In this document: piece by piece, positions 18,156 to 32,386 of the stretch
How the letters are laid out: every line of letters begins with the position of its first letter
Position numbering within the stretch: the first letter of the stretch is position 1
NCBI GenBank assembly: GCA_049424465.1
Contig: JBMSSR010000001.1
Location: forward strand, 1-32,386
Length of the DNA stretch: 32,386 nt
Origin: Ilumatobacteraceae bacterium
GTDB taxonomy: Bacteria > Actinomycetota > Acidimicrobiia > Acidimicrobiales > Ilumatobacteraceae
Direction: 5' to 3'
Notes under the pieces: model-generated
Databases searched by the model: none
The model's input: only the letters and a program-made list of their open reading frames with translations
What the model was told of the DNA's origin: nothing
Made by a program: the position numbers and the translations under genes

Positions 18156-19994
18156 TCAGGGCGATGTGGTGCTGGTGGGTGTGGCGAGCTCGCTGCCGAC
18201 GAAGACATCGCTGCGCGCGACCTCGAGCGAGCCCAGCCTGACGACCACCGTCCACGTGCCGGACGACCCGAGCGAGAAGCCGTCGGTCTTCTCGAGCACG
18301 GCGGCGCCGGCACCGGTGAGCGGGATCGGGGCGATGCGCAACCCGTTGACGGTGCTGCCGGCGGGCGGCAGGAACTCGACCACCAGATCGGCCAGTTCGG
18401 TGGTGGGCGTGACCACCTCGATGCGCACGTCGTTCGCGCCGACCGTCTCGCTGAACGACACGACGATGTCGGCATTGAGCGTCGAGTTGACGAAGCGGTG
18501 AGGGGGACCGAGGTCGAGTGTGGGGCCCTCGCTGCGCACCAGGCCGGGGGGCGACAGCGCCATCAGCCACGAGGTCAGCGCCAGGACGACGAGACCGATG
18601 ATGGCCTCGATCGTGAGCGCTCGACGCAGGCGGAACACCATCGACTTCTTCACCCGCCGCGCGGTCGACAGCGCCTCGGCGACGAACTGCCGCGCCGCCA
18701 TCGCCACGAAGACCATCATCGCGACGACGATCGTCTTGACGATCAGCACCAGGCCGTGGCTGCTGCCGAGCTCGCCACGATCGAGGCGGAACAGCAGCAC
18801 CACACCCGAACCGACCGCCGCCCACAGCACGGGTGTCGACCATCGCGAGTACTGGCGCACCGCTGCCGTGGTCTCGTCGTCGCCGCGCCCGGCGAGCACG
18901 ACGCGCACCATGAGGGCGAGACCGCCGAACCAGAGCGAGACCGCCGCGGCGTGCACGATGCCGGCGAACCACTCGATCAACCCGAAGTCGGGTCGGTCGA
19001 AGCCCATCGTGACGATCGCGATCGCCGGCAGGCCGAGCGCCTGGAGGCGGAAGCTCGGGTCGATCGCGCGCTCGGGCCGGACGACGACCCACCCCGTCGC
19101 TGCAGTGAACGCGAGCCGCAGCAGCGCCGCCTTGCCGTGCGCGGTGTCGATGAGCGGGCCCCAGCCGGTGGGCGACATCGAGCTGGCGAGCGAGGCCTTG
19201 CCGATGTGCGCGGCGAGTGCGCCCGCGAAGAGCACCGTGCTGACGAGGGCAAGCGCGTAGACGGTGCGCAGGAAGCGCTGTGTCTCGAGCCAGTCGACCC
19301 CCGACGGCCAGCACGTGGCGAGCGTGACGATCGCACCGAAGAGCACGGCGACGAACAGGTTCGACATCCACCGGAACAGCCCGAGCGGCCCGGCAGGGTC
19401 GGACACCGTCTCGGTCTCGGCACCGTCGACGGTGCCGGTGGTCGGCTGACCTGCCACGGACGTGGGTGTGGTGGCGGTGGGGTCGACCGCCTGGCCGGGG
19501 ACGGTGGTCGTGGTGGTCGGGGCGGTGACCACGGTGTCGTTCGCGACGACGAACGTGTAGCTGCCGCTGCCGGCGGGCTGCAGGTTGGTGTCGGTGACGC
19601 GCCACACCACGTTGCACACCCCCTTGGGGATCGGCGCGGTGAGGGTGACCGACAGTGTCACCAGATCGGCGAGCACCAGCGGCTTGGGTGTGCTGATGAC
19701 AGCGGCCGGCTGGCCCTCGGCACCGCACGTGAGCGTGACGGTGTTGGTGGGACCGAGGGGGCTGGCGAAGGTGAGCACCAGCGTGGCCGGGGACACGTCG
19801 ATGGTCGTGTTGGGGGCCGGGGTCGCACTGGCGAGGCTGTTGTCGACCGCTGCTGCGGGGCTGGCGCCGAGCAGTGCCAGGGCGGCGCTGGCTGCGAACG
19901 TCGCCACGACCATGGTGGTCAGCGGGCGGCGGCGCCGACTGCCGGTGGTGGCAGGCGCGGCGCGGCGCAGGACGATCGACGGGAACACGGCCAT
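18156..19994 (-). CDS. CopC-CopD fusion copper-handling membrane protein with C-terminal YtkA/FixH-like beta domain
   Basis: RR-containing signal peptide. CopC-like beta domain: SLASATPAPNTTI...LTFASPL...VCNVVWRVTDTNLQPAGSGSYTFVV. Then a Thr/Pro linker, a polytopic CopD-like region, and a soluble C-terminal domain. Start is ATG 19994 (or TTG 20006). Confidence 0.78.
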   Translation of the reverse strand: MAVFPSIVLRRAAPATTGSRRRRPLTTMVVATFAASAALALLGASPAAAVDNSLASATPAPNTTIDVSPATLVLTFASPLGPTNTVTLTCGAEGQPAAVISTPKPLVLADLVTLSVTLTAPIPKGVCNVVWRVTDTNLQPAGSGSYTFVVANDTVVTAPTTTTTVPGQAVDPTATTPTSVAGQPTTGTVDGAETETVSDPAGPLGLFRWMSNLFVAVLFGAIVTLATCWPSGVDWLETQRFLRTVYALALVSTVLFAGALAAHIGKASLASSMSPTGWGPLIDTAHGKAALLRLAFTAATGWVVVRPERAIDPSFRLQALGLPAIAIVTMGFDRPDFGLIEWFAGIVHAAAVSLWFGGLALMVRVVLAGRGDDETTAAVRQYSRWSTPVLWAAVGSGVVLLFRLDRGELGSSHGLVLIVKTIVVAMMVFVAMAARQFVAEALSTARRVKKSMVFRLRRALTIEAIIGLVVLALTSWLMALSPPGLVRSEGPTLDLGPPHRFVNSTLNADIVVSFSETVGANDVRIEVVTPTTELADLVVEFLPPAGSTVNGLRIAPIPLTGAGAAVLEKTDGFSLGSSGTWTVVVRLGSLEVARSDVFVGSELATPTSTTSP

Positions 19995-20006
19995 GGTGGT
20001 GCTCAA

Positions 20007-20012
20007 ACGCTA
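20007..20012 (-). promoter_or_regulatory. -10 box TAGCGT upstream of copCD
   Basis: Minus strand: TAGCGT, then 12 nt, then ATG 19994 (a short leader). It abuts the TTG at 20006, which argues against that start. Confidence 0.3.
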
Positions 20013-20108
20013 CCCCGTCGGGGTCGATCGGGTCCCCCGTGCAGTGCCCGTCGGCCCGTCGGCGCGGGCTGCTCGGCCAGCGGTGGCAGGGCCGTCGTAC
20101 CCCGTGGG

Positions 20109-20114
20109 TAGAGT
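20109..20114 (+). promoter_or_regulatory. -10 box TAGAGT upstream of dnaX
   Basis: TAGAGT, then 7 nt, then ATG 20122. No SD. Confidence 0.45.
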
Positions 20115-20121
20115 CGCACCG

Positions 20122-21891
20122 ATGGCCACCCAGTCGCTGTACCGCCGCTATCGACCCCGCCGGTTCAGCGAGGTCAAGGGCCAGGAACACGTGGTTCGCG
20201 CCCTGCGCAATGCGGTCATCAACCATCGCGAGGGGCAGGCCTACCTGTTCTCGGGCCCCCGCGGCACGGGCAAGACCACGTCGGCCCGCATCCTCGCCAA
20301 GGTGCTCAACTGCGAGCGCCCGGTCGACGGCGAGCCGTGCTGCGAGTGCGACTCGTGCCTGTCGGTCGAGCGTGGCACCAGTTACGACGTGCACGAGCTC
20401 GACGCGGCCAGCAACAACGGCGTCGATGCCATTCGCGACATCATCGACAAGGCGTCACTCGGCACGCCGGGACGCCACAAGGTGTACATCCTCGACGAGG
20501 TGCACATGCTCTCGAAGGGCGCAGAGGCCGCCCTGCTGAAGACGCTCGAGGAGCCACCGCCGCACGTCGTGTTCGTGCTGGCCACCACCGATCCGCAGAA
20601 GGTCTCCGAGACCATCCGCAGCCGCACGCAGCACCTGCAGTTCCACCTGCTCCCGATGGACGTCATGGAGGACCACGTGCGGTGGCTCGCCGCCGACGCC
20701 GGCATCGACATCGGTGACGACGCCATCCAGTCCGTGCTCCGCCAGGGCGGTGGCTCGGCACGCGACACCATCTCGGCGCTCGAGCTCGTGGCGTCGGGTG
20801 GTGGCGAGCCGCTCGACATCACGCCGCTCGACGAGTTCGTCGAGGCGTTCATCGCCCACGACACCGGTCGGGCGCTGTCGGCCGTTGCGCACTCGGTGCA
20901 GCGTGGGCTCGGTCCGCGCACGCTGGCCGAGGACGTGGTGCGCCACCTGCGCGACTGCTTCCTCGCGATCATGGCGCCCGAACTGGTGCAGCTGCCGGCC
21001 CAGCGTGCCGACGAGGTCGCTGCACTCGCGCAGCGCCTCGGTGCGGGTGGCATCGTGCGCGCGATGGAACGTCTCGGCGAGGTGCTCGTCGAGATGCGCC
21101 ACGCCCCCGACCCGCGCGTGCTGCTCGAGGTCGCGCTCGTCCAGCTCACGCACGAGGCATCCAGCGTCGACATCGGTGTCCTGCTCGAGCGCATCGAGCG
21201 TCTCGAGCACCAGGTCGCCCAGGGCGCGGCTGCCGCACCGGCGTCCCGCCCGGTGGCGATCGACCCCGCCACGGGCCGCGCCATGCTCGGCGGCCGGGCC
21301 CGACGCGAGTCGCCTGCGGCCAGCGGTGCACCCGCACCGGCATCCATACCGGCCGCAGCGTCCGAGAGCCCGGCACCACCGCCGGCTCCGGCGCCCAGTG
21401 CCCCGGCCGCGTCGAGCGCACCGCGCAGCGGCGAGGCGTCGAGTGCCGACATCGCGTCTGCTGCTGCGGCGTGGCACGGCGAGCTGCTGCCCAACCTGAA
21501 GGGCATGGCCCGGGCGATGTTCTCGCCGCTGCGCGTCCTCGGCGAGCGCGACGGCGCGCTCGCCTTCGCGGTCTCGCGCGAGTCGGTGCGCGACAAGTGC
21601 GCCAAGCACCTTCCCGAGCTGCAGGCAGTCATCGCCGACAAACTGGGCGTGCAGATGCGTGTCTCACTCGTCGTCACCGGCGAGCCCGATCACGAGCTCG
21701 ACAATTCCGCACCGATACCGCGGCCGCCCGAGGCGCGCCGACCCGAGGCCCCGCCGCCGGTCGAGATCATCGAGGACGACGACATCGACGTCACTGCGCT
21801 CGAGGACGTGCCGCCCGAGGCGGTGCAGACACCCGAGGCGATGCTGCAGGACCTCTTCCCCGGCTCGAGCATGATCGAGGAGCAGCGCTGA
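20122..21891 (+). CDS. dnaX: DNA polymerase III subunit gamma/tau
   Basis: [24 protein letters not shown]..., Walker [10 protein letters not shown], Walker B ILDEVHML, Cys cluster CCECDSC, SRTQ sensor motif. TAGAGT box 7 nt upstream of the ATG. Confidence 0.95.
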
Positions 21892-21892
21892 C

Positions 21893-22498
21893 GTGGCGGT
21901 GTACACCCAGCCGGTGCAGGCGCTGATCGACGAACTCGGTCGGCTGCCGGGCATCGGTCCCAAGTCGGCACAGCGCATCGCCTTCCACCTGCTCAAGGTG
22001 CCTGCCGACGACGTGGCGCGACTGGCGATGGCGATCGCCGAGGCGAAGGCCAAGGTGCGGTTCTGCGACCGTTGCTGGAACGTGGCCGAGGCCGAGCTGT
22101 GCCCCATCTGCGCCGACGAGCGTCGCGACCCGACGGTGCTGTGCGTGGTCGAGGAATCGCGCGACATCATCGCCATCGAGAAGACGGGCGAGTTCCGCGG
22201 TCGCTACCACGTGCTCCTCGGCGCGATGAGCCCGCTCGAGGGCATCGGTCCCGAGCAGTTGAAGATGAAGGAACTCTTCACCCGCCTCGAGCCTGAGGGC
22301 GTGCAGGAGGTCATCTTGTGCACCAACCCCAATACCGAGGGCGAGGTCACGGCGATGTACCTGGCGCGCATGCTCACCCCGTTCGGGGTGAAGGTCACCC
22401 GTATCGCCAGCGGGCTGCCGGTGGGTGGCGACCTCGAGTACGCCGACGAACTCACCCTCGGCCGCGCCCTCGAGGGCCGGCGCGAGATCACCGGCTGA
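21893..22498 (+). CDS. recR: recombination protein RecR
   Basis: HhH motif [18 protein letters not shown]4 zinc finger [16 protein letters not shown], Toprim region. GTG start 1 nt after the dnaX stop. Confidence 0.95.
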
Positions 22499-22559
22499 CG
22501 CACCACCCAGCGGCGGCGTCACCGACCGGGCTCGAGCACGCCAGCGCAGGCAGGTACCG

Positions 22560-22672
22560 AAATGGACTGGGGCACCACCCCCATGTCTGGTGCGGGCGTA
22601 TGGGCCAGACACGGGGGCGGTGCCCCAGATTCGGACGTGGTGCCGGGAGGTCGCACCACGTCGTGAATGTTT
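22560..22672 (-). ncRNA. candidate promoter-driven structured small RNA (unclassified; two hairpins)
   Basis: Minus-strand transcript predicted from the TTGACA-17-TAATGT promoter. Hairpin A has a perfect 10-bp stem (22662-22653 / 22643-22634) with loop GACCUCCCG. Hairpin B has a 22-bp stem (22626-22605 / 22590-22569) that is fully paired on the minus strand only (two G.U pairs). A tail AGUCCAUUU follows, and there is no credible ORF. The ends are approximate. Confidence 0.4.
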
Positions 22673-22674
22673 CA

Positions 22675-22693
22675 GTCACATTACAAATGTGAC
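22675..22693. promoter_or_regulatory. perfect inverted repeat GTCACATT-ACA-AATGTGAC overlapping the -10 box (candidate operator)
   Basis: 8-bp arms at 22675-22682 and 22686-22693 with a 3-nt centre. It covers the spacer, the -10 and positions up to about +1 of the minus-strand promoter. Confidence 0.45.
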
Positions 22694-22706
22694 GAACACG
22701 TGTCAA
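22678..22706 (-). promoter_or_regulatory. near-consensus housekeeping-sigma promoter (TTGACA - 17 nt - TAATGT)
   Basis: Minus strand: TTGACA at 22706-22701, a 17-nt spacer, TAATGT at 22683-22678. It sits in the AT-rich island between two convergent gene ends. Confidence 0.5.
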
Positions 22707-22783
22707 GCATTTCCTTCTCCGCCGTCGGCGTGCGGCCCGCCCACAGGGACCGTGACGGGGGCTCCGCCTGCGGGTCGGGGGTG

Positions 22784-23965
22784 TCAGACGGTGCGGACGA
22801 CGAGGGCGTCGCCCTGGCCGCCACCGCCGCACAGCGCAGCAGCACCGACGCCGCCACCGCGGCGCTGCAGTTCGAGCAGCAGGGTGAGTGCCAGGCGGTT
22901 GCCGCTCATGCCGATCGGGTGACCGAGCGCGATCGCACCACCGTTCACGTTGACGACCTCGTCGCTGATGCCGAGCTCGCGCATCGACGCGAGACCGACG
23001 GCGGCGAATGCCTCGTTGATCTCGAACAGGTCGACGTCGCCGACGGCCATGCCCGCTCGGGCGAGAGCGGCGTTGATGGCGCGGCTCGGTTGGTGCAGCA
23101 GCGACGCGTTGTCGGGTCCGGCAACCATGCCGTAGGACACGAACTGCCCGAGTGGCGTCACGCCTCGTGCGGCGACAGCACGCTCGCTCATCAGCACCAC
23201 GGCCGAGCCACCATCGCTGATCTGTGACGCGTTGGCGGCAGTGATGGTGCCCTCCTTCTCGAACGCCGGCTTGAGCGTCGCGAGCGTGTCCATGGTGGTG
23301 TTGGCGCGGACGCCCTCGTCGGTGTCGACGACGACGGCGTCACCCTTTCGCTGGGGGATGGTGACGGGCACGATCTCGTCGCGGAAGCGGCCGGACGCGA
23401 TGGCATCGGCCGCCCGTCGGTTGCTCTTCATCGCCATGTCGTCCTGTTGCTCGCGCGAGATGCCACCGGCCGAATAGCGCTCGGTGCTCGCACCCATCAG
23501 GCACGCGTCGAACGCGCACCACAGACCGTCCTTCACGATCGCATCCGCGAGCTCGGTGTTGCCGTAGCGGAAGCCACCGCGTGCGCCCGCAGCGAGGTAC
23601 GGCGCGTTGGTCATGCTCTCCATGCCGCCGGCGACGACGATGTCGGCATCGCCCGCCATGATCATCTGGTTGGCGAGGTAGATGCTGTTGAGACCGCTGA
23701 GGCACACCTTGTTGATGTTGACCGACGGGACGTGCAGCGGAATGCCGGCGTTGGCGGCCGCCTGTCGGGCGGGCACCTGACCCTGTCCGGCCATCAGGAC
23801 CTGACCCATGATCACGTGCTCGACCTCGTGCGGCGCGACGCCCGCGCGCTGGAGTGCGGCAGCGATCGCCATGCCACCGAGGTCGGCGCCGCTGAACTGG
23901 GCGAGCGCGCCACTCATCTTGCCGATCGGCGTGCGGGCACCCGCCACGATGTACGAACCGGACAT
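22784..23965 (-). CDS. acetyl-CoA C-acetyltransferase (thiolase II)
   Basis: Start MSGSYIVAGARTPIGK (ATG 23965, GGAGG SD 7 nt upstream). Thiolase motifs: NKVCLSGLNSI, NVNGGAIALGHPIGMSG, ALCGGGGQG. Confidence 0.93.
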   Translation of the reverse strand: MSGSYIVAGARTPIGKMSGALAQFSGADLGGMAIAAALQRAGVAPHEVEHVIMGQVLMAGQGQVPARQAAANAGIPLHVPSVNINKVCLSGLNSIYLANQMIMAGDADIVVAGGMESMTNAPYLAAGARGGFRYGNTELADAIVKDGLWCAFDACLMGASTERYSAGGISREQQDDMAMKSNRRAADAIASGRFRDEIVPVTIPQRKGDAVVVDTDEGVRANTTMDTLATLKPAFEKEGTITAANASQISDGGSAVVLMSERAVAARGVTPLGQFVSYGMVAGPDNASLLHQPSRAINAALARAGMAVGDVDLFEINEAFAAVGLASMRELGISDEVVNVNGGAIALGHPIGMSGNRLALTLLLELQRRGGGVGAAALCGGGGQGDALVVRTV

Positions 23966-24059
23966 GTCGAACCTCCACCGGCCGTGGCTCTCGCAGTGGC
24001 CACGCCGCATCGAAGCGTATGCCGTCGGCGCAACCGCGGCGGAATGGTAGAGAGAGGGA

Positions 24060-28709: not shown

Positions 28710-30041
28710 ATGCAGCAGATCCTCGAGGCCATCGAAGCGGGCGCATCGGCCGACGACTTCGCACGACTTCCGGTGCCCGAGTCCTATCGGGCGGCCCACG
28801 TGCGCAAGGCCGACCAGGACATGTGGAAGGGCGTCGCCTCGAGGGACAAGGACCCGCGCCGCAGCCTGCACATCGGTGAGGTGCCGACCCCCGAACTGGC
28901 GCCCGACGAGGCCTACGTCGCAGTGATGGCGAGCAGCATCAACTTCAACACCGTGTGGTCGAGCATCTTCGAGCCCATCAGCACGTTCGGGCCGATGGCA
29001 CGGCTCGCCCGCGAGAGCACGTGGGCGGCACGTCACGACCGCGACTACCAGGTGGTGGGCAGTGATGCCGCCGGCGTGGTGCTGCGGGTCGGCGCAGCGG
29101 TGCGCAACTGGAAGCCGGGCGACCGTGTCACCGTGCACTGCAACCACGTCGACGACCAGGACCCGTCGGCGCACGACGACTCGATGCTGGCGAACAACCA
29201 GCGCATCTGGGGCTACGAGACCAACTTCGGTGGTCTCGCCGACCTCGCGGTCGTCAAGGCCAACCAGCTGATGCCCAAGCCCGCCCACCTGACGTGGGAG
29301 GAATCCGCGGTCAATGCGCTCTGCAACAGCACGAGCTACCGCATGCTCGTCAGCGCCAATGGTGCGCGCATGAAGCAGGGCGACGTCGTGCTCATCTGGG
29401 GTGCCACCGGCGGCATTGGTGCCTATGCGACGCAGTACGTGCTCAACGGCGGCGGCATCCCCGTGTGCGTCGTCAGCTCTCCCGACAAGGCAGCGATCCT
29501 GCGCGAGATGGGCGTCGAGCACATCATCGACCGTTCGGCCGCCGGCTACCGGTTCTGGAAGGACGAGCACACACACGACGAGAGCGAGTGGCGGCGGCTG
29601 GGCAGCGACATCCGCGACCTGTGCGGCGAGGACCCCGACATCGTGTTCGAACATCCCGGTCGATCGACGTTCGCGGCGTCGATGTACGTGGTCAAGCGCG
29701 CCGGCACCGTGGTGACCTGTGCGGCGACGAGCGGCTTCATGCTCGAGTTCGACAACCGGCACTTCTGGATGCGGCTCAAGCGGTTGGTCGGCTCGCACTT
29801 CGCCAACTACAAGGAGGCGTACGAGGCCAACCGCCTGATCGGCAAGGGCATGATCCACCCGGTGCTCAGCCAGGTGTTCCCGCTCGACCAGACGGGCGAG
29901 GCCGCGTACCAGGTGCACCACAACATGCACGAGGGCAAGATCGGCGTGCTGGCACTGGCCCCGACCGAGGGCCTCGGGGTCACCGATCCCGAACTGCGGG
30001 CGAAGGTGGGCGACCACCTGCACCGCTTCCGGCGCGCCTGA
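28710..30041 (+). CDS. ccr: crotonyl-CoA carboxylase/reductase
   Basis: Start MQQILEAIEAG (ATG 28710, TAGCGT box 7 nt upstream). Ccr-typical segments: VAVMASSINFNTVWSSIFEP, QRIWGYETNFGGLA, IWGATGGIGAYATQ, DIVFEHPGRSTF, NRHFWMRLKRLVGSHFANYKEAYEANRLI. Confidence 0.9.
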   Translation: MQQILEAIEAGASADDFARLPVPESYRAAHVRKADQDMWKGVASRDKDPRRSLHIGEVPTPELAPDEAYVAVMASSINFNTVWSSIFEPISTFGPMARLARESTWAARHDRDYQVVGSDAAGVVLRVGAAVRNWKPGDRVTVHCNHVDDQDPSAHDDSMLANNQRIWGYETNFGGLADLAVVKANQLMPKPAHLTWEESAVNALCNSTSYRMLVSANGARMKQGDVVLIWGATGGIGAYATQYVLNGGGIPVCVVSSPDKAAILREMGVEHIIDRSAAGYRFWKDEHTHDESEWRRLGSDIRDLCGEDPDIVFEHPGRSTFAASMYVVKRAGTVVTCAATSGFMLEFDNRHFWMRLKRLVGSHFANYKEAYEANRLIGKGMIHPVLSQVFPLDQTGEAAYQVHHNMHEGKIGVLALAPTEGLGVTDPELRAKVGDHLHRFRRA

Positions 30042-31807: not shown

Positions 31808-32001
31808 GCGACCCGGGGTCGCAGCGTTCGGCGGCTCACCGCCACCGCTCCCGCCCGTGGTCGAGCGACTTGATCTGAAACTGATGAAAAGATCCTCAAG
31901 GAGAGCCTGACGGGTGACGACAATCTGTGTGCGACCGTCGTGACCTGCTCGGAAACCTCGGCGTTCATCACTATCGGGCACAACATCAGCGGGAGGAACG
32001 C

Positions 32002-32340
32002 ATGAACGCCCAGACCAACTCCAAGAATGACAAGGGATTCACCCTCGTCGAACTCCTCATCGTCATCGTGATCCTCGGCATCCTGGCCACCGTCACGGTG
32101 TTCGCGGTGCAGGGCATCACCACCCGTGGCAAGGAAGCCACGTGCGACGCCGACTACAAGACGTACGAGACGGCCATCCAGGCGTTCTATGCCCAGAACG
32201 GCGCCTTCCCGACGTCGGACGCCGACCTCGTCACCGGTGGCTTCCTGACCTCCGAGTCGACCAACTACGACGTGGCAGCGGCCGGCGACGGCTCGATCGC
32301 CGTCGACGCAGCGGGTACCAACGACTGCACGCTGCCCTGA
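32002..32340 (+). CDS. type IV pilin / pseudopilin with prepilin N-terminal cleavage-methylation motif
   Basis: MNAQTNSKNDKG|FTLVELLIVIVILGILATV: a class III signal with G-1, F+1 and E+5. GGGAGGA SD (31991-31997) upstream of ATG 32002. 112-aa precursor with two Cys. Confidence 0.88.
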   Translation: MNAQTNSKNDKGFTLVELLIVIVILGILATVTVFAVQGITTRGKEATCDADYKTYETAIQAFYAQNGAFPTSDADLVTGGFLTSESTNYDVAAAGDGSIAVDAAGTNDCTLP

Positions 32341-32368
32341 TTCACAGCGCAGCTGAACAGCCTCGGAG

Positions 32369-32386
32369 CCGGGCCCTCGGGCCCGG
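32369..32386 (+). terminator. GC-rich hairpin downstream of the pilin gene (cut by window end)
   Basis: CCGGGCCCTCGGGCCCGG is self-complementary and starts 29 nt after the pilin stop. The downstream sequence is not visible. Confidence 0.35.

Follow-up and report, generated by a model that had tools for sequence, protein, structure and literature searches.

A candidate small RNA gene beside recR in Acidimicrobiia, with its own promoter and a conserved C-rich-loop hairpin

Gram-positive small RNAs (sRNAs) with C-rich motifs, such as RsaE/RoxS of the Firmicutes, seed on Shine-Dalgarno regions through unpaired C-rich motifs in their loops and end in a 3' terminator hairpin. Another short RNA, the small SRP RNA (RF00169), is often linked to dnaX-recR. 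The best point of comparison for the locus described here is 6C RNA (RF01066; B11/ncRv13660c in M. tuberculosis and cgb_03605 in C. glutamicum), which is ~80-100 nt long and is transcribed from a strong, SigA/SigB-dependent promoter (PMC5014011). It has two conserved stem-loops with at least 6 conserved cytosines per loop (PMC5014011), and through these C-rich loops it base-pairs, chaperone-free, to G-rich ribosome-binding sites, among them the one of dnaB (PMC6486639).

We analysed a 32,386-nt stretch of DNA from an Ilumatobacteraceae bacterium (hereafter the window), in which a sequence-only reading had proposed a novel sRNA in the spacer between recR and a thiolase gene. The candidate resembles 6C RNA in having its own SigA-type promoter and stem-loops with C-rich loops. 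However, its core consists of one 24-bp hairpin, with CGCCCGC in a loop of 14-20 nt, whereas 6C RNA has two short hairpins, and it differs further in its host class, Acidimicrobiia, and in its fixed neighbour, recR. Two conserved C-rich loops were not found: only the second of the two hairpins predicted in the window (hairpin 2) is conserved, with 8-10 C in its loop, and the loop of hairpin 1 in the window has 5 C. The candidate is unrelated to RsaE/RoxS in sequence and in Rfam; CGCCCGC, not a CCCC/UCCC run, is its universal motif, and a CCUCC-like loop occurs only in the optional hairpin 1. The candidate shares with intrinsic and two-way terminators a GC-rich hairpin placed between two 3' ends, as well as a U tail in some members, but it differs from them in its conserved promoter, unusually long stem, large invariant loop and selection on one strand, and in being missing from relatives that have the same gene pair. 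Finally, it is similar to small SRP RNA in its hairpin shape, its length of ~100 nt and its dnaX-recR neighbourhood. We rejected an assignment to SRP RNA, since the element had neither a match to the RF00169 model nor the domain IV motif, and a separate, canonical SRP RNA (66-69 bits) was found upstream of dnaX in three related loci (L015, L101 and L027).

The search of Rfam 15 returned no match at the gathering score for the whole window and none at permissive E-values for the spacer and 11 member loci, apart from spurious matches to miRNA hairpins in the permissive runs on the element. The 6C model, which the sequence-only reading had singled out for this check, gave no match at E-values up to 10 (window positions 22450-22850) or up to 5 (11 member loci). 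Membership of 6C was thus ruled out by both the covariance model and the architecture, and of the 6C-type likeness noted earlier only the analogy is left. In the literature searched and in Rfam 15, we found no description of an sRNA from Acidimicrobiia. On these comparisons, the element is best classed as an sRNA family of Acidimicrobiia that had not been catalogued before and that resembles 6C RNA by analogy and not by membership.

Genomic setting and promoter

The convergent genes recR (21893-22498, plus strand) and thiolase (22784-24010, minus strand) are separated by a 285-nt spacer, and both the gene coordinates and the spacer length given in the sequence-only reading were borne out on recheck. 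Pfam confirmed dnaX (ORF 19585-21891, plus strand), recR and the thiolase. In the window, recR lies directly 3' of dnaX (19585-22498), without an intervening ybaB/EbfC gene. As listed, the dnaX ORF begins with an N-terminal extension (~160-180 aa) that falls outside the alignment with its homologues, and it overlaps an opposite-strand CopC/CopD gene; the true start is probably near 20080. The 32 kb of the window contain neither a tRNA nor an SRP RNA, and copCD occupies the position upstream of dnaX where a tRNA and a canonical small SRP RNA were found in L015 (657-937), L101 (528-840) and L027 (9-928).

The G+C content of the window is 69.6%. Its lowest-GC 50-nt stretch (0.38, compared to 0.70 overall) falls within an island at 22641-22729, which agrees with the AT-rich island that had been described around the promoter. 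Another of its few low-GC stretches (31853-31931) precedes a pilin-like ORF (32003-32386, plus strand) that opens with MNAQTNSKNDKGFTLVELLIVIVILGILA, corresponding to the N-terminal motif of type IV pilins and pseudopilins (G/FTLVELL). The two ORFs that overlap the spacer had been dismissed as not credible, rightly so, as they are antisense or without a Pfam match and neither is conserved in relatives.

We sampled ~36 Acidimicrobiia loci, picked by RecR alone, and read the DNA 3' of recR in each. A promoter followed by a long hairpin with a CGCCCGC loop was present near recR in 14 of them, including the window. The features of the window copy are given in Table 1.

Table 1. Features of the candidate sRNA gene in the window
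Feature	Coordinates	Strand	Basis
-35 hexamer, TTGACA	22701..22706	-	Direct reading; TTGAC in 10 of 14 RecR-anchored loci
17-nt promoter spacer, with conserved CGTCA (22690-22694) and TTTG immediately 5' of the -10	22684..22700	-	Comparison of 14 loci
-10 hexamer, TAATGT (TANNNT type)	22678..22683	-	Direct reading; TAAYGT in most relatives
Conserved block 3' of the -10, consensus.A..G.aACa, with predicted transcription start and AACA motif of the RNA 5' end	22663..22677	-	RecR-anchored and metagenome sets
Hairpin 1 (predicted), perfect 10-bp stem, loop GACCUCCCG (22644-22652)	22634..22662	-	Fold prediction
Hairpin 2 (predicted), conserved core: 24-bp stem with 2 G-U pairs, 14-nt apical loop	22567..22628	-	Fold, covariance model, covariation
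Apical loop of hairpin 2, CCCAUACGCCCGCA, with CGCCCGC (22592-22598)	22591..22604	-	Invariant columns in the alignment
3' tail, UCCAUUUCGG, weak U tract, probable 3' end	22557..22566	-	Direct reading

The minus-strand promoter that had been read by eye, TTGACA, 17 nt and TAATGT, was confirmed, and the pattern TTGACA-N17-TANNNT had this single match in the 32 kb, compared to 0.02 expected. TANNNT is the usual form of the actinobacterial -10 element. A strict consensus scan based on TATAAT missed this promoter because TAATGT differs from TATAAT at three of its six positions. None of the 14 RecR-anchored loci departs from the 17-nt spacer length. The four loci without TTGAC had TTGTC, TTGAT or TTGTA as their -35, and the -10 variants among relatives were TAATCT, TAACCT, TAACAT, TATGGT and TAAAGT. 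Within the spacer, GTCA was exact in 7 of the 14 loci and T-T-y-G was conserved. The consensus of the 14 loci (TTGaC. / t...t..gtca..tTcG / TAA.gT /.A..G.aACa) indicates that conservation runs through the spacer and ~10 nt beyond the -10. We did not find this promoter block at the SRP RNA or tRNA genes of related loci, thus it is specific to the candidate sRNA gene. Based on the spacing to the -10, transcription is predicted to start near 22671. From the perfect -35, the optimal spacing and the TANNNT -10 we infer a strong, housekeeping-type promoter, from which the RNA would be strongly transcribed.

The promoter spacer also contains a partial palindrome, TGAC-N8-GTCA, which may be an operator. 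In one lineage (L003, L006, L009 and L018) the GTCA of the spacer is lost and an inverted repeat brackets the promoter instead, with a TGTTGCGA-like sequence ~10-20 nt 5' of the -35 and a TCGCAACA-like sequence just 3' of the -10; this repeat may be an alternative operator. Together, the spacer palindrome and the bracketing repeat hint at a putative regulator binding site.

Predicted RNA structure and covariation

The transcript predicted from ~22671 folds into two hairpins, with a fold energy of -75.7 kcal/mol and a z-score of -8.3. The perfect 10-bp stem of the first hairpin is as previously read; the second, taken for a stem of 22 bp, has 24 bp including 2 G-U pairs. In L091, the closest relative, hairpin 1 persists: one C-G pair has become G-C by compensatory change, and the loop is C-rich. 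Elsewhere it has CCUCC-like loops in several lineages and a UUCG loop in L100, and it is missing in the L015, L017, L082, L083 and L008 types. As judged from this distribution, hairpin 1 is lineage-specific and lies outside the conserved core, so that of the two hairpins ascribed to the sRNA in the sequence-only reading it is hairpin 2 that proved to be conserved. The CGCCCGC columns of its loop were invariant in 22 out of 22 distinct sequences while the stem sequences drift freely; the loop reads CGCCCG in the L015 type and GCCCGC in L027. U-rich tails were present in ~10 of 24 members, and the predicted RNA lengths ranged from 78 to 145 nt.

We built a covariance model (R1) of the 24-bp hairpin and aligned the members with it; it matches the window at 22559-22632 on the minus strand with 83 bits. 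Its match columns, re-aligned gap-free, gave an alignment of 22 distinct sequences (A4), in which 93.3% of the cells were standard pairs and 20 out of 24 pairs had changed on both sides. The covariation score of A4, an alignment that was fitted by the covariance model and leans towards structure, was 0.682, compared to 0.305 for shuffled alignments (0 of 500 reached 0.682) and 0.08-0.16 for slid controls. In a plain MAFFT alignment, changes on both sides were found in 10 of 13 predicted pairs.

Three comparisons separated the two strands. G-U cells outnumbered A-C cells in hairpin 2 (48 and 9, respectively), the model scored 83 bits on the minus strand and 47 bits on the plus strand, and the 12-nt tail contained on average 4.1 U on the RNA strand compared to 2.9 on the other (p ~0.03, for sequences that are not independent). 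The excess of G-U over A-C, the bit scores and the U-tail bias argue for a functional RNA on the promoter's strand, and the substitution pattern indicates that hairpin 2 is maintained by selection at the RNA level on that strand.

With regard to a REP- or MITE-like repeated palindrome, which would have many dispersed copies in a genome, the 32-kb window has one true copy of the element, and each locus carries one, in the same neighbourhood each time. A second covariance-model match in the window, at 29392-29471 on the plus strand, reached 17-20 bits and has a counterpart of similar sequence (GGGGTGCCACCGGCGGCATTGG) in L004 (5631-5710, plus strand); both look like a conserved glycine-rich coding segment and not an RNA.

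Occurrence and context in Acidimicrobiia

RecR places the window in the Acidimicrobiia, with the best matches in Ilumatobacteraceae-like metagenome-assembled genomes (MAGs) at 82-83% identity. In the RecR-anchored set, the promoter-hairpin unit lay directly 3' of recR in convergent orientation in the window and in L001, L002, L003, L006, L008, L009, L011, L015, L017, L027 and L070, and ~2 kb from recR in L018 and L028. In five other loci (L004, L005, L010, L012 and L036) recR and the thiolase gene nearly abut, with neither the element nor a hairpin between them; the hairpins are therefore not required as terminators of this gene pair.

A scan of metagenome contigs with a promoter-only pattern (TTGACN7CGTCANNTTYGTAAYGT) recovered 23 loci, and in 21 of them a long hairpin with an apical loop containing CCGCCCGC followed 40-125 nt downstream. 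Of these 21 hairpin-bearing loci, 18 were confirmed by covariance models and 3 were judged by eye. The subgroup of L015, L017, L082 and L083 was missed by both models (R1 and R2) and was assigned by eye on the basis of promoter, position and loop. A match to the pattern in L086 (1929-1957, minus strand) includes a GCAAC-like sequence after the -10 and has no recR or CGCCCGC hairpin nearby; it may be fortuitous or may mark a different gene with a related promoter.

Across the metagenome and RecR-anchored sets, recR was adjacent in 29 out of 31 member loci, and the 3' end of the RNA usually lay 15-100 nt from the recR stop codon. In L095 (~1100-1200), this gap is filled by tandem units of ~16 nt (GTCTGTTGTCTGCACG-like). 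The unit is found 0.6-2 kb away from recR in L018, L028, L097 and L102. In L081 and L085 it is downstream of recR and co-oriented with it, and these inverted copies indicate that promoter and hairpin travel together as one cassette. Promoter and hairpin kept a constant order and strand across the loci, inverted copies included, and the promoter geometry was conserved in more than 30 loci whose RecR identity to the window ranged from 66% to 93%. In alignments with close relatives, the conserved segment runs from exactly the -35 to a few bases past hairpin 2, and the flanks were unalignable even for L091, despite a RecR identity of 93%. A search with the exact RecR for closer relatives yielded a single contig, 997 nt long and ending at recR.

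Outside Acidimicrobiia, model R2 gave no credible match among L035-L080, and we found no match to the element in plasmid and phage collections, on which ground a mobile-element origin was rejected. One contig carrying a clear copy of the gene together with an actinobacterial-type dnaX-recR (L070, CAXMSE010000076.1, 3001-3800) is labelled as an uncultured Gammaproteobacteria MAG; given this gene content, the contig is probably mis-binned.

We also considered a small protein and a riboswitch or 5' leader. The former was rejected because no ORF, start or frame is conserved; the longest ORFs vary in where they start, in frame and in sequence, and most of them read through recR in antisense. The latter was rejected because the candidate has no co-oriented downstream gene: the next gene is convergent in nearly all loci, and the RNA would run into a convergent gene, recR or another, at its 3' end. 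The promoter-hairpin unit is self-contained and conserved across Acidimicrobiia, and is neither coding nor a leader. The comparative test that had been proposed for the orthologous spacers downstream of recR came out positive, with conserved hexamers, 17-nt spacing and hairpin and abundant compensatory changes in the stem, and the analysis supports the earlier proposal of a promoter driving a discrete, novel sRNA of ~100-115 nt.

Proposed function and competing explanations

The explanation we prefer is an independent sRNA gene on the minus strand, from ~22671 to 22558, with a product of ~113 nt (~80-145 nt in the family). Transcription would start near 22671 from the TTGACA-17 nt-TAATGT promoter, and the RNA would begin with a short conserved single-stranded AACA motif, followed by the lineage-specific hairpin with its CCUCC-containing loop and by the conserved 24-bp hairpin, whose large apical loop would display CGCCCGC. 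Transcription would terminate at hairpin 2 and the weak U tail, shortly before it reaches the 3' end of recR. By analogy with 6C RNA, the exposed C-rich loop or loops would pair with G-rich, Shine-Dalgarno-like segments of mRNAs, acting in trans and without a chaperone. We consider the existence of an independent sRNA gene beside recR highly probable, and its action in trans through loop pairing a tentative proposal with somewhat less than an even chance; to the combined statement, gene and mechanism, we assign a probability of roughly 0.55. The invariant loop and the near-invariant promoter suggest an important function and probably abundant expression.

Regarding targets, the loop complement GCGGGCG was not enriched in the window (32 matches, 35 expected), nor upstream of dnaX when members were compared with non-members. 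CGCCCGC is not an anti-Shine-Dalgarno sequence, and the anti-SD-like CCUCC belongs to hairpin 1, a hairpin that some lineages lack. Recognition by a protein would fit the invariant 8-nt loop motif equally well; the same sRNA gene could produce an RNA that binds or sequesters a conserved protein reading the invariant apical loop on a rigid 24-bp stem. The loop that stays constant while the stem drifts, the lack of a complementary target enriched nearby and the nature of the motif all speak for such a role, but only recR and dnaX are consistently linked to the element, which leaves no candidate partner gene, and the known actinobacterial sRNAs with C-rich loops use base pairing (PMC6486639); we give this serious alternative a rather low probability. 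Lower still is the chance that the RNA is a very divergent homologue of 6C, which we rate as very improbable. The SigA-type promoter, the length of ~100 nt, the stem-loops with C-rich loops and the Actinomycetota host would suit a 6C relative (PMC5014011, PMC6486639), yet the Rfam 6C model found nothing in the window or in the 11 member loci, and the core is one long hairpin whose companion C-rich loop is not conserved and is missing in several lineages.

Other explanations tie the element to its position. It could act locally to tune the dnaX-recR operon, by convergent transcription from the strong promoter, by two-way termination at the hairpin or by antisense pairing with a recR 3' UTR, as its tight linkage to recR and its stable hairpin fold on the plus strand too would suggest. 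The inverted and displaced copies weaken this reading, as do the relatives without spacer and hairpin; moreover, the G-U and A-C counts and the U tails favour the minus strand only, and a terminator needs no invariant loop, so we give local tuning a low probability. That there is no RNA gene at all, the hairpins being terminators of the convergent genes beside a chance promoter or the AT-rich block being a DNA operator only, is scarcely credible. The position between two 3' ends and the partial palindrome would be compatible with it, but not a promoter geometry held in so many loci, a fixed order and strand of promoter and hairpin even when inverted, the loss of the element where recR and thiolase abut, or pair changes that preserve G-U and argue for selection at the RNA level. 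We likewise rejected a reading of the hairpins as terminators only, given that a terminator scan detected nothing at the spacer, that abutting relatives lack the hairpin and that a conserved promoter is attached; the alternative offered in the sequence-only reading, terminators with a fortuitous promoter, is contradicted by the same hairpin-free relatives and by the unit moving as a whole when its orientation flips.

The independent sRNA gene is therefore the reading we carry forward, and its novelty is that of a new family of a familiar kind of RNA. As a more speculative and unlikely extension, the RNA could serve the whole class Acidimicrobiia as a highly expressed riboregulator tied to dnaX-recR, genes of replication and recombination. 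It would either fill the niche of 6C RNA (the lineage may lack 6C) or act via a dedicated protein reading CGCCCGC, and the unusually conserved spacer and flanking palindromes would be the operator for a conserved signal, for example DNA damage or an arrest of growth. The Acidimicrobiia (e.g. Ilumatobacteraceae, Ca. Microthrix), mostly uncultured, abound in freshwater, marine, soil and wastewater habitats. Defined by comparative evidence, the sRNA family can be annotated in their MAGs now by its recognisable promoter, its covariance model and its fixed place in the genome, and it can be tested in the few cultured strains. It also offers a second, independent case for asking whether C-rich loops are a general chaperone-free targeting device of high-GC Gram-positives.
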